In this document: piece after piece, positions 10,304 to 43,574 of the stretch
Position numbering within the stretch: the first letter of the stretch is position 1
Layout: each line of letters begins with the position of its first letter
Origin: Nemertoderma westbladi
Lineage: Eukaryota; Animalia; Xenacoelomorpha
Assembly (NCBI GenBank): GCA_032718475.1
Contig: JAUCBJ010003590.1
Coordinates: forward strand, 26,230-90,229
DNA: 64,000 nt
Reading direction: 5' to 3'
Notes under the pieces: generated by a model
What the model was told of the DNA's origin: nothing
Database searches by the model: none
Seen by the model: the letters and a program-made list of their open reading frames with translations, nothing else
Made by a program: the position numbers and the translations under genes

Positions 10304-10568
10304 ATTCTAGTCTATTAAGATATCGCGGCACCCACCGATATACTTGAAAGACAAAATTCTAGAATCAGTGGTTAACGTCCCCAGACAAGTTCTGGAATAA
10401 ACTGGTGCCCATCCTAAATATTAATTATTAATATTTACAAAATCTGTCAAATTTTAGATCCTTTAAAATTCTAGTCGATTAAGGTATCGTAGCACTTACC
10501 GATACTCTTAAAAAGACAAAATTCCTAGAATCTAGGATCCCAGTCCCCAGACACGTTCTGGAATAAAG
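10304..10568 (+). repeat. ~164-bp tandem duplication in the BEL-1 3' non-coding region
   Basis: attctagtc.attaag.tatcg..gcac..accgata...aagacaaaatt...ccccagaca.gttctggaataaa at ~10304 and ~10468. Confidence 0.75.
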
Positions 10569-11399
10569 TTACGTCTATTTAACATTAAATAATAAAATTT
10601 ACGGGAATAAATTTAAATTCATATATTTCAATGAATTTAATAAATTGTTATTTTTATACAATTTATAACATTCCCAAAATTCCATTAATTAATAGATCAC
10701 GGGAGCGGAGATTCACTCTATTAAGCGTATTTGTGTGTGAGAATCTCCAATATATAGTCAATAGCCGATAAAATTCATAAAATCATATATAGAGAGGATA
10801 TTGACAATTAACGAATTACTATTAAATAGCATCCCAGATCTGTATGCATGAGAATTACCCTAATTCTACCGCTAGCTTTTCATAATGTCACCATGGCAAC
10901 AACCACGCTAGAATTAGAAGTGAGTTAAAAGAACAATAGAAAGCTTGCCCCATTGAATAGCATAGTGAATAAATAGCGCACTGCTAGTATCCAAGGATAC
11001 ATAATAACAACGTGACATTCTGGAAGGCACTGACTAACGGACAAATGACCCGAATGTGTGATAGAATGTGTACCATTTGTGACAGTTACGTGGAATTTGT
11101 GCGTTTGTAGGTGAATGTTACTACTAAGGTGCGTTTACAGTAGCGAGTCGCAATTGTGAAAGTAACCCTAACTCTCCAGTAAGAACCTGAAGTACATCTA
11201 AGCCTTTGGGACGGACAGTGGAGTGACTTGTGCCGGTTATCGTTGTCGTTGTGTAGCTACATCATTGGCGAAAGCACAGCGACGACGGTACATCGGCGCT
11301 GAGGATCTTGCACTGTCCGGGGGCAGAGAGGGGTAGGCAGCGACGCCCGCTCACCTAAATATAAACTCATTATAATATGGATAAACTTATATAGCAGAT

Positions 11400-12928
11400 A
11401 TGATTGAGTTGATAGAAGATGATCTTGGTATCAGGGAGCGATATACTCTACCTTTGCAAGCGTTTGTTGATAGCTTGATACGTAGCGACGCTGGTCCAAC
11501 TACTACGGAGGACGATGGTCGTTATATCTAACCGCCAATGTCCTGGGAACAACTTGCGCGTGGGTTGGACTGTAGAAAATTCACCGCTCGCTATACGCAT
11601 CGTAATGGTACGTATATGGACTTCTTAACTACTGGTCATCCTATCGACCTACACGATACGAACGATATAGACACCAAAAGGGAAATGGTTTATTTAAATA
11701 TCATACCCAGCGGAAGCGGAAGGATAAACTGAGACTCGAACACGAAAACTCTATTCGAAACCGACTCGAAAGTGCAGATGTCGAAGAGCCGGATAAACGC
11801 AGCGACTTCACCAAATACCTGGAATTCTTGAGAGAAACCTATCTCGATATTACCAGTCAACAGAATCTAGAAACTCGATATCCTCAAGGTATACATCATG
11901 ACCGCATGGTAGAACTCAAACGGCTCTATTCCACTATGATGTATCTTACCGCCGATCGACCGCTACCTGTTGTACCGGATAGCTTCGAACGAATGGAGGA
12001 ATATTGTAAGCTGGAGAAAGATCACTCGCGTTTCCCCTACAAGACGTGCGTTTTTGGTATTATTGCGATGAATGTCCAAGACCCAACCAACAAACGGAAT
12101 GACATAAACATCCGCGGAGACGTTGCTTTAAACACGGTTTTACTCGCTATATTTACGGGAGTTTCGAGCGAAACTTGTTCGATGTATCACCTACGCTCGT
12201 TCGACTCAGACGATCTTTAAATAAACCAATGATCAGAGTTTCAGAATACTCGATCAGATCTCCTCATTCCCTAGTGTGTAGTGAGACCTCAGACTCTTGA
12301 TCCTATTGGTATGACGGATCCTCCCGAGCTGTACTCACTACTCAAAGATCTAGTGTTACCTGAACAATTAGTCGGTGGCACCCCGGTTGTGGGCTTCCTA
12401 GATATTAGCCCATACTACCTAGCCGGATTGGGACGCGGACATTTAATATCGCCGTTTAACCCTTACCATCGTCCCGGCTTAACACGATATAACCTGTCAC
12501 CAAAGTGGCGGAGAGCGTTGTACCAAATGAGTTAGACGCCATTCTACAAAGATCAGAAAAGGAACTTACGCTTGTTCAGATAAACGTAAATTGCACTAGC
12601 AAGTCCAAGCGGTAAACAAAGTAACTTTATCTAAGTTCGATCGGGAAATCCAGAATCTCTAAGAAGTTATCGAACTTGGACGATCCTATTCTCTGCGAGA
12701 GTTTTTGGATGAACGTATCCAGCTACGAGCGGAGGAAAATCAGCTCGAGGAGAAGCATATCGAAACGGCGGATACCTCGACCATAATCCTACACCTTCTG
12801 ATGCAAGCATATTGCACCCTTCACCCAGGAGTTATGGCCCTCCTAGTAAAGTGGCTCCCCCCAAAGAGAAAAGGACTCTTGCTAGCCTCAAAAAACTGCG
12901 TAAACGCCGTCCTCGTAAGAAAGACTAA
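11400..12928 (+). pseudogene. Decayed orphan accessory ORF (~500 codons) between pol remnant and 3' LTR of BEL-1
   Basis: Coding-like segments 11400-11732, 11720-12535 and 12600-12928 linked by frameshifts and several stops; ends ...KKLRKRRPRKKD*. No domain recognised. Confidence 0.55.
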
Positions 12929-13006
12929 CTGTTTAGAGTATCTTTATATTTTAGAAACTGTGATTTGTTATATTTTATAGACTTAAATCCCATTTTCTGG
13001 GAGCGG

Positions 13007-14133
13007 TGTAAAGGCTTTTGCGTAATTAGCCGGTTATTTTCCCCGTAAAGTACTCTGTAGTTGGTTTAACCGGCATAAAAGGCCGTGTCCTTACTGTATT
13101 GTTGTTTTAGAGGACATAAAAGCCATTTCTTCTGTATGTGTACTTTAGCGGACATGATTAGCAATTCTATGACGCAATAAGCCGGATCCTCTTGAAACAG
13201 TGTAGATACCATGACGACGGCTAACAGCTGATATTGCCACGTAGAACATCTCTTTGTTCTTTGTTCTCTCTTTGTTCGGTCGACCAATCAGAGCGTTTTT
13301 TGCCTCTGTGTTGGAGATGGTGTATAGAAACTAGGGAAGTGAGTCAGTATGTGATTTTTCCACAGCCTACAACACCGGCGTGGAACCTCCGTGTTTCAGT
13401 CTTTAGTTCAACATTAGTAGGCTTAATTATAGAACGTATATCCGTTATCTATCCATAACTTAATCATTCATACCTTAACATTACTGCTTTTGCTGTCGGT
13501 TATTCATTATATTTGTTGATGGAACATTATATTCGGAATACTGATAAACAATCAGACACCCCAATCTTCTTGATATACTAAAGGTTAGAGAGACCGGATA
13601 CATATAACGATTGCGACTTACATTGAGTGGTTTGAAGTGAATCTAATGCTATTTTATAGGCTGTACATGTATTGTCTGTTATTCTCTTTGTATGTGACTA
13701 AAATTAGTAAAGGTCGGCAGATTGGTGTGCAGCATTGTGTATTATTGTGATTGATAACGAAGCATCTCCTAAAGAATGCGCCATATACGTGAATCTATAG
13801 CCATCCCGTTGCGTCTGGTTTAAGTCATAACTCTGTTTATATATTTAGAGCGCCACGTCCTAAAGGAACTGTTAATATTTCCCGAAAGTGAATAATATTG
13901 TCAGAGATTATATATATTAAGATCAGTCGAATAATACAGTAGGTCTATCCCGCAATACGATTAGGCTTCCGAATCCAGTCTCCCGGGTATATCCAGCGGG
14001 TGAATGATCGCGCATAGACTGGTTTCGGCTAATGTAGTGTATCAAATATTTGTCGTAGGCTAAAGACGAACTATTATCTAGAAGACTTCCCAATTTGGCA
14101 GGTTAAACTGCTAAAGGTCTGAAAGCGCGAACA
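13007..14133 (+). repeat. BEL-1 3' LTR (1127 bp)
   Basis: Direct repeat of 2017-3153, followed by TSD GCAAT. Confidence 0.95.
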
Positions 14134-14928
14134 GCAATCTCAAAGATCTGGAATACTATTGAAAACTTCACTCACTCAAAATATCTAAAACGAAAGAAGG
14201 GCCCTAAGATTATTCATCACAGTTGTTACATTAACTGCAATTAAGTAAATAAAGAGGCAACTAATTTCATTTAAATTTCTAAACATTTTATTTAAGATAA
14301 ATATTAAGTATTGAGAGCACCGTTAAGTTTAAATAATGTAACAAAATTACGTACTGTACATCATTGTACAGTATGAAGGAAACTATTCCCCGATAAGACC
14401 CGGTTGTTTATTTATACAGTACAAACCTCCCTCGCTACGCTCGCTCATTACATAAATACACTCAGTTCATAACGTTGAAATGTGCTACAATGATAGACTG
14501 TAAATAAATACTGATGTATTCCATATCACTGTGGGAAACTAATAAGGTAATTGTAGGGCACAGAAACGATGGCGTTTTTCGCAATTTTCGCAAAAAACGT
14601 AAATGAAACCTCGCATTCTTCTTATAGGCCACCTGTAGTTACTGTAATTTATAGTTCGCATTCTATGTATTTATGCATTAATGCATACAGTAGGCCTACG
14701 TACAGTAGAATAGGCCTACTGCGGGGCGGGCAAGTCGCCTTGGGGCGGGTATATACAACATAGTATTATACCCGTGGTACTGTAGGACTATTTACTAGAT
14801 ACTGCGTAAGTATTGTATGCATTAATTACTACCTTAGCACAACGGTAGACTGATTGACCCCCCCCCCCCCCCCCCCCCCTCTCTATTGTCTTATTATTCC
14901 TAATGGTAGGTCTTTCTTTCCGTACCAG

Positions 14929-15210
14929 GTGATATGGGAGAACACGAAAGAGATCGGATGTGGAGTTAGATACTGTGAGGATGACGGTATGACTCTCGTC
15001 GCTTGCGATTATTACCCCGCAGGCAACTACTTGGGTAATTACCCTTACCAAGCTGTACAATCTGGCAGTGGCAGTGATGACAGTGGCAGTGGCAGTGCCA
15101 GTGATGGCAGTGGCAGTGGTAGTGCCAGTGATGATGGAGTGGATACCACCTCAACACTAGAAGGTACAACACCAGCATCAACATCTACGGAGGACACAAC
15201 AGTCGCCTAA
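14929..15210 (+). CDS. CAP/SCP gene, terminal coding exon with Ser/Gly/Asp- and Thr-rich tail
   Basis: Acceptor ctttccgtaccag|14929. VIWENTKEIGCG...LVACDYYPAGNY completes GHFTQ|VIW and the second CAP signature. Stop at 15208-15210, AATAAA at 15251. Confidence 0.9.
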   Translation: MIWENTKEIGCGVRYCEDDGMTLVACDYYPAGNYLGNYPYQAVQSGSGSDDSGSGSASDGSGSGSASDDGVDTTSTLEGTTPASTSTEDTTVA

Positions 15211-15644
15211 CGATGATACTGTACTGTACGGTAGGCCTACAATCAAACTTAATAAAGAATATGGGTAATGGTGTCATAGAGTAATAATTAATTTTATTAT
15301 ATTCTGTATGTAGTGTTGTCATAATAAGTATAACTATTCAGCTAATTGTATGTAGGCCTACTGTAGGTGGGCCTACTACACCTTATATTATCTTGGTGTA
15401 GTTTCTTTACACACAATCGTAACTCGCAACACAACATCTGTTATTGACATACTGTAATTGTTATGCACAAAAATTGTGTTTATTGTACACCCGCCAATGC
15501 TATTTGGTTTTCGCATCAAATTTATTTCCCACGAAAGCAGCTGGTATCTAGCGGCTGAAAAACGAACACTTTATTGTGAACAAATAAAGTAATGTTGAAT
15601 TTTAATTTCAAAGTAATTTCCATGACATTGATTTTTTATATTAG

Positions 15645-15763
15645 CTATAGATACGACCCGCTAAGCTGCTGCAAAGCCCCTTAATTTAGTGGGCCAGTTA
15701 TTTCTCTTAGATAGAACCCCTGTTTATATTTATTTAAAGCCCCTATTTAATAGTTCTAGCTCT
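15645..15763 (+). repeat. 5' part of a Helentron/HINE-like interspersed repeat interrupted by BEL-2 (continues 28914-29068)
   Basis: atagatacgacccgc.aagctgctgcaaagcccc..aatttagtgggccagttattt is shared with 29069 and, inverted, 40445-40504. Confidence 0.65.
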
Positions 15764-16122
15764 TGTGCGAAATCCAGGCTGGTTCTGTAAAACTGTTTTT
15801 CATTGTTTTAAAATCTTTCTTACTTAATAATAACATATATAATAAACTGATTAGCATTTAGGTAAATATGATAATTATAGTTCAGTACATAATAATTAAC
15901 GGTATAAGGCACCAGATCACGGTACCGGTAAGTATAACACAGACAGACACAGTCTGTGTATGAAAATGACTGAAAAGCAGAACAAGGAAACGACACGTCC
16001 TTCTGTAGTTGGTTAGTAAGAATATAATCAAGCAGTCAGCCATATGTATAGTAAAAATATGTGGTACTAAAAAATTACTTCAATCCTAAATACAGTATAA
16101 TTATTATCTGTAATTTAGGACA
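15764..16122 (-). repeat. BEL-2 3' LTR (359 bp)
   Basis: tgtgcgaaatcc...ttaggaca, direct repeat of 28548-28908. Confidence 0.95.
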
Positions 16123-16302
16123 TACTCCCGCCACCGAACAAATAAACGCTTCTAGCTAAATAATTAGGCTCTATAAAAATTAATATTTTCAAATTATATA
16201 TATATATATAGCCTTCGTCAAAATAACATGCAAAACAAAATGAACCATATAATGTAACAAAATAATATTTGGTTATAAAATATTTCTCAACGGGATAAGT
16301 AA

Positions 16303-19300
16303 TCATATACTACTTTCACTCTCGGACTCAGATTCATTGCATATCGTAGTGATTCGTTGTTGGGCTTCAGTAGCCGCCTGGCGTTGTGGACGCTCTGATC
16401 TTACTGGGGGCTCTGGTTGAACGAGAGTGCCGGTAGTTGTTTGATTAAGGGGGCCGAGTTCAATATTGTCCGTTTCTAGAGGATACAACTTCCGTACAGG
16501 GCGTACTAGTGTTCCTAACTGTGTACGTAGGACGACAGATCGTACCCATCCATCCTTACCGGGGTGTAAGGTGATCACACGACCAAGGGACCATTTAGAA
16601 TGTGGTAAATGCGGATTATGTATTTGTACGATGTCATTTAAACGAATTTGTGTGGTTGGAAATGGGTTGTTCCATCGATGGTACTCGCGCAATGCAGTGA
16701 GATATTTGTGGGACCAGCGATTTTGAAACGCTTGCAATAAGTTTTGTATGTACAATTGACGGCGATTCAGTGTCGAATGTGGTACAAGGTCTGGATCATC
16801 GAGATCATCTCGCTCGATAATTCGATTTGGCAATGTGGTAATACGATGTCCAACCATTAATGTCGAGGGTGTAATGGGATTGAGGTCATCAATGTTAGAA
16901 GACACGTAGGTCAGTGGCCGGTCATTTAAAATAGCTTCAATTTCAATAACGACAGTCTGGAGCTCCTCCAATGAAATCAAGGCACGTCCCAATATCTTTT
17001 TCAAAATATCCTTTACCATTTTGATTAGTCTTTCCCAGAAGCCTCCATACCAAGGACTAGCTGGTGGGATCGTCTTCCAAATAGTCCTCTGATTAAGTAG
17101 GTAATCACGTACACCTGGATCATCCTGTATAGCTTTCATAATATCATTTGCAGCAGTGAAGTTAGTTGCATTATCGCTTAGTATCAAAGAAGGAGTAGAA
17201 CGTCGCCCAATAAGACGTCGAAATGCAAAAAGGAAAGATTCTGCACTGGCATCTTTTGCTATTTCCAGATGTACAGCGCGTGAAGTCGCACAAGTAAACA
17301 AGACAATATAAACTTTAACTTGTTCATTACAATCTATTACAATGAGTCTACCAGTATAGTCTACACCAGTAGTTTCAAATGGTCTTGTTTTATTAACTCT
17401 AAAGATAGGTAATGGAGGTGGAGGAGGTGTTGAGTATGGGAGACCTCTGAGACGTTTGCAAGTAATACATTTATGACAGATGGATTTAACGATTTGTCGA
17501 ATTCTAGGGATCCACCAATTCTGTCTAAGGTAAGTGACAGTGTCGCCAATACCAGAATGACAAATACGTTCATGGGCGTATGAAATCAGTAGTCGGGTAA
17601 ATCGGTAGTCGGTCAGGATAAAGTAGGATAGGTTGCTGAGTATTCCATGGTAGATCGGAATATTGTATTCTTCCAGCACATCGGATAATACCATCTACTA
17701 GAATCAAACGTAACTGTTTTATTATAGCAGGAGAGCGGGACTTGCTCTTATCATTCAAAAGACAACGATATACATCAGGATAACAAGTTTGTTGTATGTA
17801 TTTAATTAAATACAACTCGGCAGTTTTAATATCATTGGAATTTATAGTATCTCTGACATTATCATTTACTATTTGACTATGTTCATTAATGGACTTGCGC
17901 AAATTTATTCTATATTTGAGTTTGCGAATAAATATAAATACATATGCTGTCACTCGAAGTAGTTTATCATAATTGCTGAATTTGGAAATGTTTATCAGTT
18001 GCTCTGGAACAGATAATATGGATTCAACTGTTGAACACAATGTATTTATTTGTGGTTGATTAATATAATTGTAGTTAACATGAGATTGTTTAGGCCAATC
18101 AGATGACGTTAGCCAATTGGGACCATGTCGCCATAAATCGGATTTCAGAAGTATCTTCGCTTTTATTCCCCTGGATAACATATCTGAGGGATTGTCATTG
18201 GTTGAAACGTATTGAAAGTCTGCATTTGGTAGAATGCTATGTATCTCTTCAACTCGATGACGAACATAAGGATTAATAATGCCTTTAGATTTGACCCAAA
18301 GTAATGCGATTTGGCTGTCAGACCACACCCACAGACGACAATTTGGTAGTTGATGAGATAGTGTATCAGCAACATAACGAATGAGCCGAGCACCAACTGT
18401 TAATGAGGTCAACTCCAGTTGAGGAAGTGATAATTTAGTCTTCTTCTTCTTTTGAGGAGATTCTGATGTTAGAGGTAGTAAGGGTGCGACTCGTCCCTTA
18501 GCCATCACTAACTCGGATTGTTCAGATTGAACTGCATAAACGACTGCACCATAAGCTTTAATGGAAGCATCGCAAAACACATGTAATTTGGAACTGAGTC
18601 CTAAAGGTAGTCGTCGAGGTACTTCGAATGAAACTACAAGATTGAAGTCATTAATAATGGATTCCCATTCCTTCATAAATACATCAGGAATGGGTTCCTT
18701 CCATGACAATCCACGTTGCCACAACTGTTGGAGGAACATATGTGATCGGATGGTTACTGGAAATAACCAGCCATTAGGATCATATAACTTAGAAGTCAAG
18801 CACAAAACAACATGTTTTGTAACAATATCTGGAGAAACAATGTCTACGGTGGGAAATCCAATAACATCAGTATTTGTATCCCATAATAACCCAAATAAGG
18901 ATATAGTAGTATTTGTGACTTTGGGACCATTGTTATCTTTGTCAATAATTTGTTGTAATTTAGGTAAATTAGTGTGACCCATTGTTTTAATGGGAATCCA
19001 CCAGCAATGAGAACGTCGCAGCATTTGCGATAATAAGATATCAAACTGTCTTCGCTTTCATCAGTAGCCTGAAGGTTATCTACATAGATATTGTCAATAA
19101 TACGTTTGGCTAAAGTGATTTCATCATTTGATTTTATTAGAGTAGATTTCACATGGTGTCGTATTGTTGCGTTGAGTAGAAATTGAGAGCATGTAGCCAC
19201 AAACAACACTACGCGGAATCTGTAAATATCCCATGGGCTAGACTCATCTTCTGGATTACTGGGCCAAAAGAATCGAGTAACATTACGATCGACTTCTTCA

Positions 19301-21489
19301 ACTCCAATCTGGAGGAATGCTTTCTCTATATCAGCTACTGACGCCCATTTATTACAGCGAATTTTCATTAATAATGATACCAGCATTTGACTCAATGATG
19401 GACCAGTATATAGGCAGTCATTAAGACTCGGTTTATGTGGTCCTGAGCGTGCAGAACAATCAAAGACAACTCTTAGTGGGGTTGTAGAAGATGTTGGCTT
19501 CATGACCCCATGATGAGCAAGGTAATGTACTTGTTGAACATTATTTGATAAATTGATAGAATCTAGTGGTACCTTCTCAATAAATCCACGTTCTAGTTGA
19601 TTCATAATCACATTATGAAAACAACGTAGGAGTTCAGGTGTTTTCCTGAGTTTGGACAATGTACCATATAAGCGCTTGCGAGCTAACTGGATATTTGTAG
19701 GCAGAACTGGGGCATCAGGTCGCCATGGGAACTTTACTACATAATTACCATTTTCGAATCGTATAGATTGCTCAAAGTTAAGAATAGTTGATTCATGCAA
19801 TAGATCTGGGTCTTCGTAATTTATGCCAATTGCATCTAGACTCCAAATTCGATCGAAGGCAATCTCTACATTCATTTCGGGGTTGGTATGCTCTTCAGGT
19901 CCAATGTCTGAAGTTGAGGTAAAACTACATAGTGCACTTAAAGCACTTTTTATAGATTCACTGGTGGGTAGACAACCAGCTATAATATCCCCTAAGTTCG
20001 AAGGTATACAATATAAACCATCATATATTTTTTTGCATAAATAAACGAGAAAAAATAATCTACACCGATCAGCAGACCTAGATCTGGAATATCATCTCCT
20101 CCTCGTGGATCAGCCAAGGAGAAACCTTGGAGCTTAAGGGTTTCAATAAGTTAGTCCCTACCAGTGGTATGTAGACGATGTGGAAGTGTGTCCACTACAA
20201 GTGCATTAACCAGGACTGGACCGTCAGATGTAGCGACACTGAATGCCATCAATAGACATCAGAATGCGCCAAGAGGTGCATAAATTAAATGCATTCGTCG
20301 CAATATAAATGAACATTGTGAACCAGGGTCTAGTAATGCCCTTACTTCATGAGTACCAGGAGGACCATCTCTTGTTGAAGTTCCAACTATGATTGGTGCA
20401 ATAGCCGAGAAAAGTAAAGCAAAGTAGGTAGGACTATATTACTACCACCTTGTTTAAAAGGAGCTGTATCATTGGCAGCAGTAACCAATGAACCTGCAGT
20501 ACTTGACCCAGTACTGGAAGGATGGTGAAAAGTTGAATTTACCTGAGATTTATGATCTGCACTAGAACGACTAAGTAAATTTGAACTATAAGTATGTGGT
20601 GCTGACGACTCAGCAGCATGTAGTTGCTCAATCTCCTCCCTAAGTGCAACACGTAAGTCGTCTAATGACCAATGTGTTGATTTCGCAGCACGATTAATGT
20701 TGCTGCGAATTTTAGCCGGAAGTTTGCGTACAGTAAGTTCTGCATAAACGTAACCAGCATCATCAATGTTATAACCCAATGCATAGGTTTAGGTGATGAC
20801 AGGTCAAATATTGTATTTAAACGTGCACGAAGTATAACTTCCTTTCTACCATAAGTATTCTTTAACAACATTACAGCTTCGTTATAGTCTTCATTTGTGC
20901 GTTGAAAGTTATCAACTAAGCGCGCAGCTTCACCAGTTAGTTGTCCTTCCAGATATGTGAATTTTGTAGCACCTGCAATATCTTGGTGTTTATCTACAGC
21001 ATCAACAAATCTGTCCCAAAAATTGGGCCAGTCTATGGGGTTGCCAGAAAATGTTGGCAACTTTATACTCGGTAGCTTTTGCTGTCTAACTCGACCAATT
21101 TGATTATCATTAAGCATAGATGAATCATGATTGGATGATCTGCCATTACTTACTTCGCATTTGGTAGGACTTGGATTAAGGAATGTATCAACTATACGGA
21201 GTGCTGATGACATTCGACGGTCATCTCGACAATTTTTGTCGATTTCTGATACTACCTCAGTCTCAGTGGGGACTAGGCTTAAAATGTGTTCATTTAAATC
21301 TAGAATCTTAGATTGTTGGTCTCGCAATGATGTAGTAACATTGATAATGTGATCTACATCAGGGTTTTCGATAGCTATTTTTGCATCAGCATCAACAAAC
21401 AATAAAGGATATAGCTCATCTAACAACTTAGTCACCATGGCACGGTGACCACCGCATTTGCTCTTTAGTTTGGCTAAAGTTTCAGCCAT
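16303..21489 (-). pseudogene. BEL-2 gag-pol, several frameshifts
   Basis: gag LPTFSGNPIDWPNFWDRF (21489-20387); protease RALLDPGSQCSFI (~20340); RT RVVFDCSA, LNDCLYTGP, ADIEKAFLQI, YVDN (19875-18960); RNase H LHVFCDAS, WSDSQIAL, NPSDMLSRG; integrase HHCC plus GVDYTG, SDNATNF, GGFWERL and RPVRKLYPLE. Confidence 0.92.
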
Positions 21490-22195
21490 TGAGATTTAGT
21501 TTAGGCTATATCACAGAATAATAATCAGATAATGGCTCAGTAAATTGCGTTGTGTTTATAAATTAAAATATTATTTATATTATACTGGTATTGCGTACCG
21601 GTATTCAATATTCATTATTCCAGTAGGCCTATCAGTCGGGCACTTTTTTTTTTTTTTTTTTTTTTTTCTTCTTATAAAAAAGCCCTCTTGCCGATTAATT
21701 ACATATTTATGTTTATTGCACCACGGACACAGATAAATGTTAAATGAAACAAAAGCACACTTTGTTATCCACTGTACGTGATACACATCACACACACCAA
21801 ACGCACCACACGCACAAAAGCACCACACTCACAAACGCACCCAAACCAAAAAAATGAGATTAGGGCATCAAAAGTAAACCAGCCCTGACCGTTGCTAGTA
21901 CCATTAATCAGATCGAAATTTATTGTTAAATTCAGAAGTTATGAACGAGTAGTGTGTAAAATAAGTAAAAATTAAGATTAAAAGATATGTGTTGCAATCC
22001 GCAAGATATAAAAGTTTAAAGGGGCAAATATTTGGAAGAATAAGTAAACCACTAACAAAAATTAAAAAAGTCTAAATTCTAGAATTGTTTTGCACTTTAT
22101 TATACATATTTTGTTCTGTTCCACTATGTTATTACTGTAATTTAAAACCTGAAAGAGAAAACCAGTGGTATGTTGAGACGGACGTACAGACTACC

Positions 22196-25100
22196 CTAAT
22201 AGCCGAGACTGTTAAATCGACCTGTATTGAATACGAATATTGTAATTACATCGATAAGGGCGACCGCCTTGTCGCGCAGCGCTGTCGTGGAGACTGGGTG
22301 ACTGTCAGGTCCGTGTGGTGGGCCAAATAAGATAGTGGTAAGTGTTGGTCTTAGTCCTAAAGCCGAAATAGCTGCATGCAACATAATATGGTGAGAATGA
22401 AATAGTGGGCATTCCATAAAGTAGTGGAAAGTGTCCTCCCGTTGATGGCCACAGGAACATGATTTGACGGTTTGGACATGATTGGAGTAAAGGTCAGAGT
22501 TCAGAGATGAGCAATTACATCTCAGTCTGGCAAGTAAGCCGTTTATAGTTGGAGACCCAAGGGAGTAATAGGGAGGGATTGGATGCAGAGAACAAATTAT
22601 AGGCAATACACTTTGCTTAAAAGTTGTGATAGAGTCTGCGGACTGCTTATCTGTAGGAAGACTGTTCCAGAGACAAACGACGGAAGGCAAGAATGAGTCT
22701 CTGTAAAAGTTTCTGCATGCCATTGGCGGACGAACGTTACCAGAGTTACGGGTGTCATAGACGCTGGCAGACCTTACAACAGGGGGAAGCATGTCTAGTA
22801 AGTGCTGTGGGGCGTGGCCAGACATCATTTTATAGAAAATACACAATTTCTGATAGTCCCGTCTTTGTTGAAGTGGACATAGACCAGACTCCTTGTACAA
22901 CTTGTTTGTGGGGCAAGATATTGTTAATCGACACACGATTCGAATTGATTCCTTATTTAGGAGTTCCAACTCAGTTTTGAGTTCCTGAGAACAGTTGTCC
23001 CAAACGGCACCGGCGTATTCCAGGTTTGAACGAACAAAAGATTTGTAAATGTTCATTAATGCATCTCTACCAACTTTGTACTTAACAATTCTTAACATGT
23101 TTAACTTCTTGTTGGCAGCGACGAGCATTTTTGCAACCTGTGAATGCCATTTTAAGGAGGATGAGAAGATGAGGCCGAGATGCCTATGCTCTGAGACTTC
23201 TGGGATAGGAATACCATTGAGAAATAAGGGGAGGTGATTTGGGTCGCGCGATCTGCGGTGAGAAAAAAGCATACACTCAGATTTAGCAAGGTTAAATTTG
23301 ACCAACCATCTTGCTCCCCAATTGGAAATTGAGTTGAGATCCGCATTAAGTGCGGATGCGGCAAGGATACAATTCGACCTAGAGTTGACTTCTATGTAAA
23401 GAGCTGTGTCGTCAGCATAGAGACTAATATTACCAGTGACTACGTCTACTATGTCATTGATAAAAATCAAAAACAGTAATGGGCCCAACACAGAACCTTG
23501 TGGAACTCCAGCCAAGACCTTAACCCATGATGACTGTTGACCATTCACTACGACGCATTGAAAATTATCTTTTAAATAGTTATGAAGCCATTCAAGAAGC
23601 TTTCCTCCAATACCCATGTTTTCGATTTTATATAGAAGACTTTTGTGGTGGACTTTATCAAATGCTTTGCTAATATCCAGGAAAACTATGCATACCTCTT
23701 TTCCTTTGTCTAAGGCATTAACAAGGGCGTTGTAGAGAGAAATCAATTGGTAGATGGTCCCATCACCACTTTTAAAGCCAGACTGAAATTTTGAAATGTA
23801 ATTTTTGACATGAGCAAAGATTATTCTGTGGATGTAATGTTCAAACAGCTTGCCGAGGTTACTAGTAAGGGCCACAGGACGGAAGTTGTTGCAAATATCG
23901 TTTGGAATATTTTTTAGGAGTGGCAAAACATAACGCAATTTCCAGTTCTTCGGGTGAACCACACTATCAAATATGAACTGGAACAGTTTAGAAAGGTGAT
24001 TTATGATTACAGGCATCCCATCCCGGCTTTAATCATTTTATTGGAAATCCCCTCAGCCGCACAGGTAGCACTGTCAGGGTCTAAAGTTTTTATGTCACAC
24101 AGAATTTCGGGCGTATGAAAGACAATCTCAGTTAACAAAGGTTCTGGAAAAGCAGTATGAGGCATAATGAAGTTTGATTCATCCAATGAATACTGGTCAA
24201 TGAAAAAGGAGTTGAAGAGGTCTGCTTCCTCTTTTGGAGTGACAGCAACAACATTATTATAAGATATTGAGGGAATCTCCTGTTCTGGTACTTTCCCCAG
24301 CAGTTGTTTACAGATCAACCACCATTGTTTACTGGAAAATCTGGTTGAAATGAGTTTGTCCGACAGGTTTGAGAAATACTCCTTTTTTGCTTTACGGCAT
24401 TCAAGAATGTACTTGTTTCTGGCTAGGCGGAAACTGGTCCAGGAGTTGTCATTGTTAGTAGATTTTGCTGTCCTGTGAACTCTGTCCTTTATACGAGAGA
24501 GGCGCCTTAACTTAGTGGTGTACCATGGCTTGTCGTTTGGGCGTACAGTAATAATTTTGTTCGGAATGGAAGAACTCGCACAGAGCATAAATTTGTCAGT
24601 CCATGCAGAAACAACTTTGTTAACTTCTGTATGCTCTAAGTAGACACTATCCCAGTCTGTTTCACTCAACTGATGCCTGAATTTTGAAAAATCCGCCTCC
24701 TTGTACAGCCAAATGCGCCTGGTGTACGATGGGATGTTTCGAATGGGAAATTTATATGAGAAAGAGATAATGATCACTTGTGCTGTAAGGGCTAGATACA
24801 ACTATATTGGAAATTGAATCGGGAAGATTTGAAATAACAGATGACGGCGAAGTGCTGGTCAATTGTGTTATACGTGTTGGCTCCCTAATATGTTGGAATA
24901 AACATTGGCGTGAAATAAAGGAAGTTATTTCACGACATTTTGATCAGTTTAAAAGGTCCTGGTTGAAGTCGCCCAAAATAAGTATTTCATTGAAACCTAA
25001 ACTTTTTATTTCTGAAACCATCGAATTTGCTGCTTCCCAAAAAGAACTAGTAGTGGTGTTGGGGCGATAGAATAGACCTATGGCGAGTTTTCTAGAACTA

Positions 25101-25597
25101 AGGGTACAGGAGCACCACAATGATTCGAATAGGGGATCTATATCCTCTATGTTAGAGAGTCTCTTAACAGTAAACATATTGGAAATGTATAAAGCTAGGC
25201 CACCACCGTGCGAAGGGCGGTCACGGCGCTGAGGTTCGTGAAACTTTGAAATAAGGAATTTCTTGGAAATATGTGCTGGTGAAAACCATGTCTCGACAAA
25301 TGCAAGAACTTCAAATTTTGAGGATAAATTTTCTGGCAAAAAATCCCAATTGCAGGATAATGACTGAATGTTCGTCAGCATAACTCGGAGAGATGGGAGA
25401 TTTGGGCCGGGGTTAGGGTGAATGTCCCCAGATATGTACAAAATAAAGATTAAACAAGCAATAAACCATACGAGAGCTAAGCCTGTAAACATCCACGAGG
25501 TAAGAGTGTCTAAAAAGTGCTCACTTTTTAAGTATCCGGAGATAGCCCCATGAAAAGTCCCCACGCTTGCTCGCCACTGCTCAATAGAGATATTCAT
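22196..25597 (-). pseudogene. LINE ORF2: 2A-like leader, APE endonuclease, reverse transcriptase, C-terminal CxC..H..C; frameshifted
   Basis: MNISIEQWR...SGDIHPNPGP; NIQSL, VETW, GGGLALY, YRP, LGDFN (EN); FLDISKAFDKV, GVPQGSVLGPLLF, YADD (RT); RLRCNCSSLN...CSCG...HYFMEC. Confidence 0.9.
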
Positions 25598-26274
25598 TTA
25601 AATAGGAGGAAACGAAATTGAATGAGGTAGCAAGCGTGCGAGAGGGGGTGTCTTGTAGGATTGCAACACGCAATTCACACTGATTGTCCCAAAGAGAAAA
25701 TTATGTTTGTCAATAAGAAAGATGACACAGCGACAGGCAGGTGCTGATTGGTTTGGGAATGTTCCAACACACGAGTGACATTCATACAAATACCCCAGTA
25801 CACGTACAGCACACACACACAGCACACACAACAGACACACAAAATATGAGAATGGGATGGAATGAGATATGAGTGGAATGGGGTAAACCCAAGAAGCGGA
25901 AACAATGAGATGACATTGTTTTTATTGTAATTTGTATTCCCATCACCGTAAAATGTATTAATAATATAACATATAGCAATATGGGGTAATGAAGGCCTAA
26001 CAACTGACAAAGAAGACATCGGCACGTAATAAAACAATACAGTTTTGCTGGTTATCAATCACCGTAAAAAAATGTTTAAGTTGATTACCAACCGGAACCC
26101 AGTAATATAAGGTGTTTATTGAAGTACTAAACCTATACTGTATACTTAAAAGTAAACAGCAAAAATGGAAATACCGAAGTAAATGCCGGTACTAAAAAAA
26201 TATGTTCACTGAGTTCGCACATCCAAAGGAACTACTTGCTTTTAAAAGTAAAAAAAAGAAAAGAAAAAAATTTG

Positions 26275-26695
26275 TTTAAACCGAACGGCTTTACTGCTCA
26301 CTTACTTGAAATTATAAAAAAACATGCTAATAAACAAAAGTAACTATTACTGTTCTTGAAATGCTGAGAAAAAAAAAATGTAATTTAAATCAAACGGCTT
26401 TGTTGCTCATTTACTTGATATGAAAAAAAAATGCTAATAAACAAATGTAACTATTACTGTTCTTGAAATGCTAGAAAAAAACAACCGGAATATATTTAAA
26501 TCAAACCGCTTTACTCCTCACTTACTGAAATTATAGAAAAATATGCTAATAAACAAAAGTAACTATTACTGTTCATGAAATGCTTGGGGAAAAAAAATAT
26601 TTAATTTAAATCAAACGGCTTTGTTGCTCATTTACTTGATATAAAAAAAAAAAATGCTAATAAACAAAAGTAACTATTATTGTTCGTGAAATGCC
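26275..26695. repeat. Four ~110-bp tandem units in the LINE ORF1-ORF2 spacer
   Basis: tttaaa..aac.gcttt...ctca.ttact...atgctaataaacaaaagtaactatta.tgttc.tgaaatgc at ~26275, 26384, 26495 and 26605. Confidence 0.85.
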
Positions 26696-26812
26696 ATTGC
26701 CATGCATTTTACATGCACTAGTCAGAACCTGTCGTCGAGATTAATAAATTGGTTTGGGCTGTAAAAAGCGCAACCGCAATTTGATGCGTTAGCTTGGTAG
26801 AAGATCTTACAA

Positions 26813-27853
26813 CTAATTGCCAATGAGAAGGGAAGTTAAACCTGGAGCCAACCGCTTCAGAGAGAGCAGGATATCAGCGAGACAGACCTTAGGATCTGTA
26901 GGGTTATGGCAATCGGTGATTAGCGACTCCACAATATCAAGAATAGATTTGAGATGGGTGATCTGTGTTGTTTCACCAGATAAACTTTTAACAAAGATTG
27001 AGCCATCCCTTGTCCAGCAGTCCGAGATTAACTTAGCCTTAACAAGTTTGCGACACTCGTAGAATAAAGAAGCACGGAAAGGGGTAAGGCATTCGTTGAT
27101 GTATATGCGATCGGCAGCTATGTTTGTCTTTAGCTGAAATCGCGACCTGAAAAAACGATCTCGCGCTCTGTAAGTAGAGAACTTTACAACTAGTTGTTTT
27201 TTATTAAGGGATGGGTGAAACCGCGACGTATCTTTCTCTAATTCGAATGACTCAAGGCCGCAACGCTGAGCAATTGTGCAAAGGAGGTTCTCAATTCTAT
27301 TGTCGAGGGAGGGACTGGTTGCCAGGTTTGTTGGGGGGGTCACCTTGTTGTTAATTGTCGAGTCGACTAACGGACCAGATATTAGGAGGGTTTCGCGTCT
27401 TAAGTACTGGCTGTCCGAATCAGACTTCAATGCCAAACTGAATAAACTGTCTGATAGCTTCGAGCATTCTGAACATGGTTGTTGGAGTTTGGCGTCGATT
27501 GAAGCGACTAATTAGTGGGCGAGGTCATCGAATTTGATAGCAATCTGGTCGGCAATATCGGAACCCAGGGACTTGAGGAGGGAACGGATGGAAGGGTCTG
27601 TTTCGTTCCCACTTCCGGACAGCGTCACAGAGGGAAAAACGATATCCAACTCGGCAGGGACAGACTCGGGCACTGCGCTCCAAGCGGGAGCAGGTTGGCC
27701 TGCCGGTAAGCGTTTTGCATCAGGAGAGGAAACCGAGGAAGAGTGCGAAAGATCGCTGTAGTTGCGCTTACCGGTACTGCTCGTATCGGTAGAATGCGCA
27801 GGGTCAATGTTATAGGGTGAGATCGAGTTTGGCTTTGGACCAATGTCAGACAT
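26813..27853 (-). pseudogene. LINE ORF1 (coiled-coil/RRM-CTD type), one in-frame TAA at 27512-27514
   Basis: 27853-27512 and 27436-26813 are in the same frame. QYLRRETLLISG, VVKFST..ARD, IYINECLT..RA.L, WTRDGSIFVK are typical CR1/L2-group ORF1 motifs. Confidence 0.85.
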
Positions 27854-28547
27854 ACCGCTATTATTGTGAAAAGTAAGAATCAGAACCCAACCAGATGGGC
27901 AAATTAAGCAATATTAATATACAAAGTGCAATAATGCCGGATCGGTAGTTGATACAGTTGTAAACTACATCTCAGTGTGTACCGGTAGGTAGGCTAAATT
28001 GAAAGTCTGAAATAGGTGATGCTCTACAAAACTACTGACCGTGACCTGTCATCATCATCATTTCTGGGTATCAGGGTATGTATATTATAGTTAGTGATGG
28101 TGATAAATTCAAAATCTTCAGAATTTGATACTGGTGTAGCAGCATTATAGTTCAGTTCACTGCCTGACTGCCAGACTGCAGTTTATGCAGCCGGTAATGA
28201 GCGGCAAGAAGAAATACCAGTAATGCCAGAATGTAGTACAGTTTCAACAATAAGTACCGACTTTGATTCCATCAGTTTGGTCTTATACCAGCATTCAGCA
28301 TATGGATGGTAAATAAATAGACAGATGACAGATAGGGTTACCATCCGACAGTCCGATGTCCGGTATTCAGTATTACTGTATTCAGTATTACCACGCGCAC
28401 ACTGGCTGACTGGTTATATTTACGCAAAACGGTAGACGGTACGATAATGGTAGGCTGTTGGTCAGTTAGTACCGGTATGCCCAGTCTTCAGCTTTCTGGC
28501 TTTACAGGTACACCAACATTACAGCAGTACAGTGGTCCAGGCACCAA

Positions 28548-28908
28548 TGTGCGAAATCCAGGCTGGTTCTGTAAAACTGTTTTTCATTGTTTTAAAATCT
28601 TTCTTACTTAATAATAACATATATAATAAACTGATTAGCATTTAGGTAAATATGATAATTATAGTTCAGTACATAATAATTAACGGTATAAGGCACCAGA
28701 TCACGGTACCGGTAAGTATAACACAGACAGACACAGTCTGTGTATGAAAATGACTGAAAGGCAGAACAAGGAAACAACACGTCCTTCTGTAGTTGGTTAG
28801 TAAGAATATAATCAAGCGCAGTCAGCCATATGTATAGTAAAAATATGTGGTACTAAAAAATTACTTCAATCCTAAATACAGTATAATTATTATCTGTAAT
28901 TTAGGACA
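28548..28908 (-). repeat. BEL-2 5' LTR (361 bp)
   Basis: Direct repeat of 15764-16122, followed by TSD GCTCT. Confidence 0.95.
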
Positions 28909-28913
28909 GCTCT

Positions 28914-29515: not shown

Positions 29516-31627
29516 TTATAGCTTGGCTACTGAGGTTTTAGAATGTGCTGATTTCATTGGCAAGGTTTATAAAACTGTGGTATTTTAAAAAATGGCCAAA
29601 TGTCAAAATGTCAAATGACAAAATGTCAGTCGAAAAGTTTAAGTGCCAGCCAGTGCACTTCTATTTCAGTACTGCAGTACTCTGGTACTGGTCCGGTAAT
29701 AATGTAGTGAATTATGTGGTATGTGCATTGCACTGCACAAATGCGTTAGGCATTTCATTACTGATGACTGAATTATGCTGTTACGCATCAATGCCTTATC
29801 ATTATTGTAGTTTGTAGTACTGTACCTATATTTATTTGATAGGCTAGTTATTATCACTTCCACACAAGCTGGCAGCCACGGGAGCCTAATCTTGGTCTGG
29901 TCATAGTATCTGAATCTGTATGCAGGCCGTAGCAGTTTTAGTTGTTTCTGTGTGTATAGATGCCGCTCGCGCGCTCGGTCTACAGTTCGACTAGTCAGGG
30001 ATTTTCTACAGAACAGATGACACCAGGGCCTTCCGCTTCCACAACATTTGAACATTTCGACGAGCGATATATTCAGTAAACCCGGAATCTGTTCCGATTT
30101 CAGTGTGCTAAATGCCTCAAATCCCTCGGAGCCCGCCAGTAAAAGAATATACTGTACCATTCATTGTCCATCGATGTCAAGGCTTTTACAAGAGGCTGAC
30201 CCACTTCCACCGCTACGAGTCTGTCTGAAACTCTTATGAGTGTTATCAAGTGCCTTGGGGTACCTGCCGCACAGCAGGAACACTCACGAAAGTATATGTG
30301 TATATATATATTATCTAATATATATATCTGAACTGAATGTACAATCAATCACTGTAAGTATATAGCTTCAGCGCTTATAAACTGCTTCAAGGGAGTAAAG
30401 TGACAGTTACGTGTAAACCGTTCTGTTATATTGTGTTGTTGGCAAGCAAATGTGCGTGTGACTTACATATATTACAGGTAGGACACTATGTTGGACTTAG
30501 TGCGTGGTAAGCGCACAGTTCACTCGTGCTGCATACATAGTGTTAGTAGATGATATTTACTAGTTGGGGAATAATATTGCAGTACTATGGACGCACACAC
30601 TCGCACTAAAATGAACTGAATCTTTTACAGACAGGGTGCAGTCAGCACTAACCGTGTGGAAATCGAGTTAGTTTGATCTCTGGTCTTGTATATTCATCAA
30701 CAATAGTAAAGCAATAATAGTAAATAATAATAATGTAATACAGCAATGCATACAGCAAGGTGACATATCACGAGTCCTGCAAGTTACATGACTTATAACA
30801 TGCTTATTATGATGTTAGGTTATGCCTGAGAGTAATGGGATGAACATGGACTATATAAACAAGCAATACTGCAAAAATAGAACAGCCAATAGGACGCAAG
30901 AATACCTGTACCGTTAGTTACCAATGAGAGTTCAGCACTACCACAACTGCTGCTAGGCAACATATAAACAAGGTTCACGGTGGTATACAACATGAGTTAG
31001 GCATAAATATCATACGCACAGAAATTGAATGATTCTCTAATAAAAATATAAGATTTCGATATACAGTTAGTGTGTGCAGCAAAACCGTTCCCTAAAATTA
31101 CATACAAGTTCAACAATCATTCTATGAATAACACAATATCGAGTTTTGAAAATTTACGTGTAAAGGGACATATACAATCTTTCAACAGTTAAAGACAACG
31201 TTGATATTGGATACTTACTACGCACGATTAAATGCGATAAACAATCTAACTAAATAATTAAATGAAATTAATTAAGGGTAGATCAACTTCTCATATAAAG
31301 TAATAAAGTTCGTTGAGTCAGACTAAATAAATATTAAACGACCTTTCAAACAATATTAGAGTTCGATATGTTTACAAATATGATAGGTAATTTTTAAGTA
31401 GGTAATTAGGTAATATTAATCGACATAAGTAGGTAAGTATTGAGTCATATTATCCTTCAAATATAAAATACACAAATTCGACTAATATATTGAGTTTCAT
31501 TCTTATAGTAAGAAATACATATTGTTCATTATTTGCAAATATGATAGTTTTACAACGTACTTAATGGTTGACAAATGAGTACAGTGATTTTATAAAGTTT
31601 GACAGGCTAACTAATAGCAATCTTATA

Positions 31628-34053
31628 TTATCGCTTTTGCTTGGGATGCTTAGGGTTATTTCGCATACAGAGTCGTTTCCTCTTCTTTGCAGGCATTTGG
31701 GGCGCGGGTAACGTCAGGTCGTCGCTTGAAAGCGTCTCATTGGGACACGGGTGTATATCTACTGCATCTGGTGTCGGTGAAATCGGACGATCGGTGTATG
31801 TCCCGGTGGAGGTGCCGGGCATGGACAGGAACTCAACCGGTCTCGTTGCACCCGAGTCGACAGCCAGTCGACGGATCTTTAGTCCTGGAGGAGCAGCTAA
31901 GCGCTTCCACTCAGCAGCCTGCACTGGTCTGGAGGGGACGGTTTGGGTAGCGACACCAAATGGGGGCTGCTTGCCGAGGAAAATTCTTGGAGGCACAGCA
32001 TGGAGAACTGGTCCTTCACTTTGAGCGTGTTCGCTGAAAACTCGATGCTGAGGGAGCAGCTCGGGATGTCCTTCCAGGAACTGTGGACCATAAAACGTAG
32101 AGTCATTAATAAACTTTATTATATCGTAGGACGTTGCGCACTCTGGATGTATCTCGCGAAGGAAGCATCGGACAAAGCGGGTGTTGGTGCAGGAAGCTAC
32201 ACAGTTGAGGAGCTCGTAACTCAGTAGCCAAGCACGCCGAACATCTGTTGCGCAGGTGAAGGGGGCAACCGTGTATACTCCGAGGTGAGCTTTCGCTGCG
32301 GCGCATCAGGACGTGGTGATCGCATTGAGATCTGCGCATCCTTCCCACGATTGAATGTATTGTGTGACACTCGTTTCATCTTCTACCTCGATGTTGGGAC
32401 CAAAGGGGCAGTTTGGACTACTGTGTCCCTTGAGTTGGCAACGCTGTCACTGGGTGGCAAAGACTAGACAGGAAAAGAAGATGTGGTCATTGTTAATGTG
32501 GCAGTAGGGACAATAGAGTTTGATGTGACTATCGGTGAGGCGCTCACAAAGAACTCCAGGTTGGGTGGGAGGCTTGTGTGTGCGAAGACCGCAATGCGTA
32601 CAATGGACATGTTTGCGAAATAACATAAAACAGAAACCTCGAACTGTGAGCCGCTTGGTCCCATGATACCAGTCGATTAAAGCGGACTCATTGTCAGGGG
32701 CGGGCACAACAGTGGTAGCTACTGAGGTCGCTTCTAGATGGATTGGTTCTTCCGCTTGGTCAGGGGCATCCATAATATCAGTCTGTATTTGCCCAACCGA
32801 GAAGCCAGGTTTGATAATGGGTCTCTCAATCACCGATTGATGTAGATTGGAAATACATACGTCTCGGAATATGGCAAAGCCGCCGCTGGCTAGCTCATCC
32901 ATTGCAGAACGACGTAACTCTTGTTGAGACAATAACTTCACGCAAAACTGACTGTCAATGTTGGCAAAGGGGGTCAGGAAATGCCGAAAGCATTCGAAGT
33001 TCAGGAAATTACCGAGTTCATTGAGTTTGGCAAGTTGTGTTCCCAACAACAATGGGTGCGCTCTCAACGTACGGCTACAGACATCTGCAAGCCATCCAGA
33101 TAATGCTTGGTTTTCGAATATGAGGTACATCGCCAATGAGAGGTGCAAAGGAACGCTCATGAAACTATATACGGCACCAGGAGCGGTGAGTGGTCCCTGA
33201 AAGTAATAAGGCAAATATGAGTCATCATAAAGTTCCAGCCATACTCCTGAAACGTGATATGGCCAGAAGACGTACGGTCAACTCTGCTATATGTATCATT
33301 AGCGTTATGTCGGTACATGACCCATAAGAAGCCGCAGGATTGCGCCCAAGGAAGGATAACTTGGGTGTCGACAAAGGGATATGGTATGTCGTGGACAACA
33401 GGGAAATCGTCTGTTAAATCCCGATATACGGCTGAACCGAGTTTATAAATAGATTCGTCCAATAGAATGTCCAGTACAGGTTGTGGTAATAAATCGGCGT
33501 CTATTCCCATGGCCGGGTGTCGATTCACATCGTTGACATAAGCCTCCGCTTTAACAATTTGTTGATGTCTTGCATGGCATTGATAGGTGGTCAAGGCTGG
33601 GAAAACGCTGTTGGTACCGCGACAAGTATGCGTAAAAACGTGTGTGGCTCCAGTGAGGCCATGGATATGAATCAACCGAGTTGAACTGAGCTCATGATCT
33701 GGCACTGAGCCCTCATTGTAATAAATCATAACGCCGCAACTATGAATAGCATTAACTGTATGTAACGATTTAATGTTAGCCACTTCGGTGGTCAGTTCTA
33801 CTGGTATACAGGAAGTATCCAATGAACCGGGTTCTCCACGCGCTATTCTTATAAATTCATAACTAGGCGTGTCACATATATTTGTGTTTGTTCGACATAT
33901 CTAAAATCATCTTCAGGGTAGGCTACATCCAAGTTCCAGTGGACGAGGCGACGGTTATCCATAAATGTTTTTCATACTCCGGTTATATTCCTCCGAGAGT
34001 CATTGTCGTTGTGTTTCGAGATTATGTATTGAGTCGTCATTAGAAATATCCAT
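31628..34053 (-). pseudogene. Decayed orphan ORF (~800 codons) with three CCHC-like zinc knuckles and a basic C-terminus
   Basis: 33822-33157 frameshifts into 33214-32447, which continues in frame past TGAs (32447, 32306) to 31628. CTHC....H, CPYC.....H....C and (*)QRC....H....C; ends PAKKRKR...KHPKQKR*. ATG at 34053. Confidence 0.6.
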
Positions 34054-34369
34054 AATTGTTATCAACAATGTATAAATATATTAATAATTCAACAAAGCAA
34101 ACCAATGAGTCGATATAATTGTTATGATAACTTGAGTTTGTATAGGGCCAGCAATGCTGAGCCGCCCTCGATCCCCAGCCCGACACGGCCCAAGCTGCCC
34201 CTGGCCACGCTCGCTAGCGCCACTGTCTATTCCCTAGCCAACAGATGTGGAAGAACGGGTGGAAGACAAGCGTCTAATGCGCAGGGGAAGCTCGAGACCG
34301 GTCTCTCCAATGGTGGTCCGTCGGGGGCTCTATCGACTGTTATAGTGCGACTGAAATTAGTCTGCAATA

Positions 34370-34710
34370 GGGTTTCGGTTCACTACAGTAAACACACAGA
34401 GAATAGCTGTTATTTGTACTATCACACAAACTAACACACCCAATTTCACAAAACGCACAAATGTCCATTACAAAACCTACTATTTCCCGAATGTTGATAT
34501 TTTGAATTTCCATGGATACTCATTAAATAAATTTAAAGGTATTAATTTAAAAAAATATATATGATGAAACTCTAGAAATTTAATTAAAGGGTTGCGCGAG
34601 CGACACACCAGCGTCCCAATGTTTTAAATTAGTTATTAATTTATTGAGGATCAACATTCGGTAAATATAGTGGTAGAATAGGGTATTGCTCATTCATACA
34701 GATCTGGGTC
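34370..34710 (-). promoter_or_regulatory. Non-coding cassette homologous to BEL-1 10830-11170
   Basis: Minus strand cccagatctgtatgaatgagcaataccctattctacc versus cccagatctgtatgcatgagaattaccctaattctacc (10833-10870), followed by further shared blocks, mostly in the same order. Confidence 0.6.
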
Positions 34711-43569: not shown

Positions 43570-43574
43570 TCAAC

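Follow-up and report, generated by a model that had tools for sequence, protein, structure and literature searches.

Several retroelements carry an additional gene between pol and the 3' long terminal repeat (LTR), and they provide the closest comparison for the locus considered here, a non-coding cassette that occurs twice in a 64,000-nt stretch of Nemertoderma westbladi DNA (contig JAUCBJ010003590.1, positions 26,230 to 90,229; the whole stretch is hereafter the window), each time ahead of an orphan third open reading frame (ORF). Copy A lies in the element BEL-1 on the plus strand and copy B in element 2 on the minus strand. The literature was covered as titles, abstracts and chosen passages, and the comparisons below refer to those parts of the cited studies. 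In the Oikopleura dioica elements Tor3b and Tor4b, the third ORF is served by an internal promoter, Penv, for which the start sites were mapped (PMC4402516). Like the element here, these are invertebrate LTR elements with the third ORF between pol and the 3' LTR, and its promoter lies within pol or beyond it (intergenic in Tor4b); however, they are Ty3/gypsy-like and encode a membrane Env from mapped start sites (PMC4402516), whereas the locus here is BEL/Pao, with a non-membrane ORF and a putative promoter. The maize Grande gene23 and the Retand lineage combine a nuclear orphan, a long region between pol and the 3' LTR, an own promoter and a proposed regulatory role, but these are plant gypsy elements with an antisense ORF, whereas here the ORF is in sense and the cassette is common to two families (PMC7264820, PMC11963269). 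Foamy viruses have a second, internal promoter for a 3' accessory, nuclear-acting gene (PMC5902531); they are retroviruses with env, and the likeness is one of layout alone. Bdelloid rotifers provide an interchangeable ORF3 slot in invertebrate LTR elements (env-like, GDSL, DEDDy), but their ORF3s are recognizable enzymes or membrane proteins, typically spliced, and the passages searched contain no conserved upstream cassette (PMC5408684). Within BEL/Pao, env-like ORFs (roo, mosquito Chuviridae-like glycoproteins) occupy the same slot in the same superfamily, whereas the ORFs here have no hydrophobic segment and no Pfam match (PMC13524379). A term search of a BEL/Pao survey returned two passages, neither of them concerned with a non-env third ORF (PMC3118150). 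In the literature as covered, no account was found of a cassette conserved among BEL/Pao families ahead of a non-membrane ORF3 in sense orientation; as evidence of absence this is limited. The architecture is known already; what is new is BEL/Pao with a sense, non-membrane orphan and a conserved cassette with a hairpin leader.

For this locus we propose, with a probability of roughly 0.45, that in two distantly related LTR retrotransposon families the cassette is an internal promoter giving rise, independently of the LTR, to a subgenomic RNA with a structured leader, which would encode a fast-evolving nuclear accessory protein acting in trans. Host factors would bind the cassette blocks at 10833-11170, and a capped subgenomic RNA would start near the last two blocks, downstream of the final ATG, which is at 11115 in A and at 34468 in B. 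Ribosomes would then cross the leader to the first ATG, and the basic tail of the product would import it into the nucleus, where it would regulate the element through transactivation, RNA handling or anti-silencing. Such a role would account for the rapid divergence of ORF3, and a protein able to act in trans would account for a young, pol-deleted copy with an already decayed ORF3. A retroelement-borne expression module was also the core of the original prediction, and the anatomy fits it, here ahead of a non-membrane ORF3.

The analysis was based on the window, on public contigs mapped onto it and on database searches. Cassette A (10833-11170, +) consists of seven blocks at 10833-10870, 10986, 11015, 11035, 11095, 11129 and 11164, and cassette B (34368-34708, −) has its counterparts at 34708-34672, 34520, 34494, 34470, 34462, 34397 and 34374. 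The claim of shared blocks was borne out by this comparison, and their order, earlier described as mostly the same, was found to be collinear for all seven. The two regions aligned significantly, with a score of 156.5 against a dinucleotide-shuffle mean of 66.7 that none of 200 shuffles reached (z 11.9); with the first block removed, z was 5.2. Two windows over cassette B scored 113 and 95, compared with 92 for the best of 712 control windows, and six of the seven block patterns were found at A and B only within the window. The non-coding blocks are ~90% identical between copies, the spacers between them differ by 3, 4, 52, 31 nt and so on, and the upstream spacers, the ORF DNA and the LTRs of the two families align at chance level. 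Ordered blocks with variable spacers that do not keep frame, set among LTRs and upstream spacers that cannot be aligned, support the promoter-leader reading. The cassette as a coding remnant was rejected because the spacers do not keep frame. A weaker upstream block, placed earlier at 10071-10100 and 35140-35112, was at chance level, its score being reached by 4 of 186 control windows. The loose ends and variants of mapped contigs considered here are the best supported ones. Those loose ends inside the cassette are few and short (no more than 10 contigs, with medians of 19 nt or less in run X1), in contrast to 186 contigs with a median of 241 nt at the end of an RTE-like long interspersed nuclear element (LINE), a pattern unlike that of an independent insertion. 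In both families, the leader and the ORF start are connected by contigs that derive from other copies; among the contig pieces listed, none spans block 1 to the ORF.

The RFX X-box is a 14-bp GT..CC..GG..AC palindrome. X-box-like palindromes were present at all three positions named in the original prediction, two of them in cassette A (10887 and 10987), but the B site falls outside the loose pattern and the 10887 site is without a B counterpart. The B site matching 10987 is two mismatches from a perfect palindrome. The loose pattern was found 10 times against 0.52 expected per window, with 6 of the 10 in an unrelated duplicated repeat. Judged from the pattern search, the palindromes are above chance in A and partly kept in B; binding by RFX and expression of the cassette in testis or gonad would be speculation. 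Another sequence, GTTGCCTAGCAGC at ~30948-30960 (−) in the probable LTR of element 2, closely resembles an RFX site. Short upstream ORFs were parsed in both copies, one of 14 codons running through the GTGYGTTTAC block in A (11115-11159, +) and one of 57 codons, Cys-rich, in cassette B (34340-34513, −). Only the CVY-x-SE stretch of the latter is in frame in A, and Pfam gave no match to it above the cut-off. A shared RNA structure in block 1 was rejected upon testing, and Rfam covariance models gave no match, the best being E 0.34 (17 bits, cut-off 58).

In the GC-rich patch that follows the blocks, leader A (11171-11376, +) contains a hairpin at 11212-11319 with its apical loop at 11260-11265, followed by TATAAACTCA. 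Leader B (34054-34367, −) folds more weakly and shares with A the apical motif (34250-34237), GGCGCT, GGGGCAG and TATACAAACTCA. The tata(c)aaactca element described earlier is thus present in slightly different forms, as TATAAACTCA in A and TATACAAACTCA in B. Alignment from the GC patch to the ATG gave z 5.3, with three further motifs in common. Between the last cassette block and ATGGAT, no sense ATG occurs in 206 nt (A) or 314 nt (B), against 5 and 7 antisense ATGs in the same stretches; the cassettes themselves hold 8 (A) and 6 (B) sense ATGs. Freedom from ATG was matched by 38 of 3000 dinucleotide shuffles for A and 3 of 3000 for B, and by 6.8% and 3.0% of window stretches of the respective sizes. 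Hairpin A (108 nt, 44 pairs) has a z of −6.2, matched by none of 100 shuffles, and an energy of −62.4 kcal/mol in sense versus −32.9 in antisense. The greater stability of the sense strand, together with 9 G-U pairs in sense versus 1 in antisense, was taken as a sign of selection at the RNA level. The motif common to both copies lies at the apex of hairpin A (pair probabilities 0.78 to 0.95), and the lowest-energy fold of leader B also places it in an apical stem-loop (0.27 to 0.43). A two-sequence consensus fold of the leaders was not trusted. It is likely that the GC patch serves as a 5' leader with translation starting at the first ATG. The ATG-free leader argues that the RNA, or an exon, begins close to the last two blocks and ahead of tataaactca, and the structured, ATG-free stretch upstream of the latter makes its role as a TATA box doubtful; it is probably not the TATA box. 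The cassette lies between pol and the third ORF (the position of pol being available for A only), in A between the BEL-1 pol remnant and the 3' LTR, and its leader has no upstream ATGs.

BEL-1 (2017-14133, +) is bounded by TG...CA LTRs at 2017-3153 and 13007-14133, of 1,137 and 1,127 nt, with the 5-bp target duplication GCAAT just before and just after, as in BEL/Pao elements. The LTRs differ by 12 mismatches and 10 gap positions (~1%). The gag-protease frame (5533-9270, +) contains DUF1759 (E 9e-11), three CCHC-type knuckles read from the translation, as in BEL/Pao-type Gag, a protease match (E 0.015) and in-frame stops, one of them at 6055-6057; the fewest-break parse gave 2 breaks in 4,218 nt. 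Of pol, a remnant is left at 9271-9753 (+), comprising the RNase H C terminus (E 8e-4 against the RNase H region of a second element, BEL-2) and a likely integrase tail, which was read by eye and was not significant in a similarity test. Reverse transcriptase and the integrase core are missing, so that pol is incomplete, and loose ends in other copies fall at 9611-9622 within this remnant. It is followed by 1.6 kb of non-coding DNA, ORF3 and a polypurine-tract-like site (12992-13006, +) that adjoins the 3' LTR. From these features BEL-1 was assigned as a young, internally deleted, non-autonomous BEL/Pao copy. Its 2.4-kb 5' leader (3154-5532, +) contains internal duplications, and a TGG primer-binding site is not found directly after the 5' LTR. 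Summed contig depth, which is not a copy number and cannot rank parts of an element, ranged from 94,000 to 1,740,000 over 9300-13300 in run X1, on the order of the RTE-like LINE and several hundred-fold above the internal part of element 2; BEL-1 may be among the dominant repeats of the genome. A dip over the middle of ORF3 is a hint only. Contigs related to this region were present too in the run labelled organism B, and in run X5, the RNA nature of which is guessed, 30 of 30 bins of the BEL-1 stretch were covered at low depth. BEL-1 is flanked by two exons (1715-1851 and 14928-15210, +) of a host gene that is putatively CAP/SCP-like, as judged from the motifs GHFTQ and VIW..IGCG..CDYYPAGN. 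This position between the two exons places BEL-1 in an intron of that gene, in sense orientation.

Element 2 spans ~36270 to 29620 (−). Its upstream internal region (34709-36270, −), in which searches found no pol remnant, fades out close to a high-copy repeat and to a fragment of an RTE-like LINE (3' end ~36751). A polypurine-tract-like site resembling that of BEL-1 lies at 31085-31099 (−), and summed contig depth steps up exactly beside it at 31081/31082, which is a hint only. From the step and the neighboring site a probable 3' LTR was placed at 29620-31084 (−), with an approximate far end; no second LTR was found within the window. The contigs of three DNA runs that cover element 2 (30, 30 and 27 of 30 bins) include many diverged pieces, from which it was deduced to be a repeat family, and summed depth in run X1 was mostly 180 to 1,300 over its internal part. 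Element 2 is probably a truncated, multi-copy, LTR-type element.

ORF3 A (11377-12928, +) comprises ~510 codons with stops and frameshifts and is Pro/Ser-rich ahead of a basic C terminus, while ORF B (31628-34053, −), with ~808 codons, is also broken, Pro-rich and then basic, and holds three Cys/His knuckle-like motifs recognized by eye (~32602-32408, −). The fewest-break parse gave 8-9 breaks in ~1,550 nt for A and 6 in 2,423 nt for B. The original prediction of ORFs of 500-800 codons with a basic tail after atggat was right in that the ORFs are real, but neither is intact, and translation from the atggat at 11377 in A would stop after five codons, the long frame having its start at ATG 11400. 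Three ORF pieces contain 5, 2 and 0 stops against shuffle means of 11.9, 17.1 and 9.8 (4, 0 and 0 of 2000 shuffles). Of the variant places inside the ORFs, a small best-supported subset, 13 of 25 are at codon position 3 (p 0.04); for the central and C-terminal parts the count is 12 of 16. Both ORFs are genuine genes in decay. The 8-9 breaks in A, in an element with LTRs ~1% apart, indicate that ORF3 A was decaying before this insertion and was dispensable in cis. The highest 19-residue hydropathy was 0.46 to 1.38 in four translated pieces (all but the last ~115 codons of A), so no membrane segment was seen, and the translated pieces gave no Pfam fusion glycoprotein domain of the env type. Nor was an enzymatic ORF3 of the GDSL or DEDDy kind found, as Pfam down to E 5 gave only ToxB_N (E 0.003, below the cut-off). 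Homologue collections did not include this organism's own proteins, and blank results from them are therefore weak. Piece P0001 was blank in searches at near and longer lengths, and P0002 was blank even in a full HMMER search of 1.84 billion representatives; the N-terminal pieces P0003 and P0004 were covered by Pfam only, plus part of P0003 against the Atlas, and homologue searches excluded the last ~115 codons of ORF A. Two ORF pieces had no match among PDB sequences, exact look-up of window ORFs gave 0 of 10, and DNA patterns in metagenome and viral contigs and a protein search of viral contigs were blank. Fourteen metagenome loci were rejected as chance, one short stretch reaching E ~1e-4 among candidates only. 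In the Atlas, one native ORF B stretch had a best value of 0.84, with recognition below threshold (a lead only). Single-sequence fold predictions had predicted local distance difference test scores of 32 and 35 and were unusable, and derivation of the cargo from the in-window gag or LINE ORF1 was rejected by comparison. The ORF proteins are probably nuclear, as suggested by their basic tails.

Whole-length comparison of ORF A with ORF B showed no similarity in nine frame pairs or by BLASTP. The earlier statement that the two proteins are dissimilar therefore held at whole length but overlooked weak motifs common to their ends. Pairwise non-similarity is weak evidence, because homologous DUF1759 domains fail such a test too: in the BEL-1 versus BEL-2 control, homologous by Pfam, 46 of 500 shuffles reached the pairwise score. 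The N-terminal motif EDDGRYI (A) or EDDFRYV (B) lies 131 and 139 nt from ATGGAT, where the frames are open, and 13-30 of 500 banded shuffles match it. The C-terminal motif PTP-DA..-HP-P plus basic tail, PTPSDASILHPSP in A and PTPDAVDIHPCP in B, lies 138 and 147 nt before the stop and shows synonymous third-position differences (38-94 of 2000 gapped shuffles; 5 of 1396 control windows). The polypurine-tract-like sites of the two elements are also similar; similarity of the two LTRs was rejected, as they are unalignable. The terminal motifs, the shared cassette and the polypurine-tract-like site tip the balance to common descent with a middle that diverged or was replaced, and ORF A and ORF B are probably versions of a single accessory gene that evolves fast. 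Of the exchangeable or fast-evolving nuclear cargo foreseen originally, the fast-evolving and probably nuclear nature fits, but exchangeability is unsupported, with only two copies.

A number of observations weigh against the proposal of an internal promoter serving one nuclear accessory gene. No similarity links the middles of the ORFs, whose best score is matched by 13 of 30 shuffles, and ORF B is 300 codons longer, with knuckles that ORF A is without. The N-terminal motif is not significant without a position limit (147 of 1000), and the C-terminal motif is weak ungapped (188-525 of 4000), its score being inflated by Pro/basic composition; both were spotted by eye, post hoc, and are marginal (p about 0.02 to 0.15). 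Of the 9 listed variant places in the N-terminal stretches of the ORFs, a single one affects codon position 3. For three of four cuts, leader B did not fold more stably than its shuffled versions (z −0.66, −0.81 and −1.35), and the whole leader had a z of −2.3. Neither gag nor pol nor a pair of LTRs of element 2 lies in the window, so its assigned class is tentative, and support for the putative promoter comes from sequence and contigs.

A possible but rather unlikely alternative is that the module is the same and the cargo exchanged, a stable promoter-leader socket having had unrelated ORFs or middles swapped into it by template switching or recombination. The failed whole-length comparisons would agree with this, as would ORFs that differ in length and composition beside blocks that stay ~90% identical, and sharing of ORF3 among retroelements is documented in rotifers in the parts of that study covered (PMC5408684). 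However, the motifs lie at matching offsets from both ORF ends, homologous Gag domains fail pairwise tests too, and just two cargo types were seen, two copies being unable to demonstrate a socket. The accessory genes of foamy viruses are transactivators. By analogy with Tat/TAR or foamy Tas, a portable socket of BEL/Pao families in this animal, made up of promoter and hairpin leader with its conserved apical loop, might accept unrelated nuclear cargo, basic and in part zinc-binding, that feeds back on the hairpin or promoter, but this stronger version is quite improbable.

Access to ORF3 could instead be gained at the RNA level from the LTR transcript, through a splice acceptor after AACCCTA or through ribosome shunting or internal entry. 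CTAAY..YAG follows AACCCTA in both copies, an ATG-free leader would equally suit a spliced exon, and ORF3s are typically spliced (PMC5408684); the branch-to-AG distance is only 6-8 nt, however, and a pyrimidine tract is missing. In favor of shunting, the upstream ORF, the structure and a conserved UA-rich patch come one after another, much as they do in pararetroviruses (PMC5902531). The UA-rich patch is present, but the known layout is short and fixed, whereas here the upstream ORFs (14 codons in A, 57 in B) stop ~52 and 3 nt short of the first helix, so that lengths and distances differ between copies, and the stem is weak in B. Shunting would also be unneeded over an ATG-free stem. Most of the conserved blocks, the palindromes among them, lie 70-340 nt upstream. 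RNA-level access is distinctly unlikely.

More doubtful still is a role in cis on the genomic RNA, as a signal for replication or packaging that happens to adjoin ORF3 and has been retained by non-autonomous copies. The hairpin of A remains whole and strand-specific despite the 8-9 ORF3 breaks in an element with LTRs ~1% apart, and the shared motif lies at its apex, much as the packaging signal of cauliflower mosaic virus is exposed atop a leader stem (PMC5902531). Such a signal leaves unexplained why ATGs are depleted precisely up to the start of the ORF, and in BEL-2, also in this window, pol and LTR are separated by just ~180 nt, with neither ORF3 nor cassette; moreover, decay of an estimated 5-10% would leave the blocks recognizable anyway. 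Chance similarity, or an independent small repeat inserted twice, could appeal to the AT-rich context and to one depth peak over block 1 in element 2, but it is largely refuted by the 0 of 200 shuffles and by the lack of any insertion-like edge among the listed loose ends.

Other features of the window were recorded. BEL-2 (15765-28908, −) has 360-nt LTRs with 2 mismatches and a 5-bp target duplication; it is inserted in a repeat like a miniature inverted-repeat transposable element and has a LINE nested inside (~22196-27913). A perfect 1,428-bp tandem duplication (40716-43570, 100% identity), possibly an assembly artefact, carries three X-box-like palindromes per unit and lies just upstream of a KANSL3-like host gene. 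That gene consists of two very long open frames at 43527-44372 and 50566-53742 (+), with Pfam matches to KANSL3_1st (E 0.001) and Abhydrolase_11 (E 1e-6); together with the BEL/Pao elements and spliceosomal introns it points to an animal host. A 23-bp satellite array occupies 60450-62550, and a weak tRNA-like match (38 bits) lies at 45144-45215 (−).

Where the additional ORFs of LTR retrotransposons encode neither Env nor an enzyme, they lack an explanation, and nuclear ORFs with their own promoter have been described mainly in plant gypsy elements. The apparent abundance of BEL-1 offers many natural copies in which to ask whether non-coding control outlasts coding cargo, and these copies could also show whether the cargo is an anti-silencing or a transactivating factor. 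If true, a socket with Tat/TAR-like feedback would amount to regulation in the style of complex retroviruses in a very abundant invertebrate retrotransposon.

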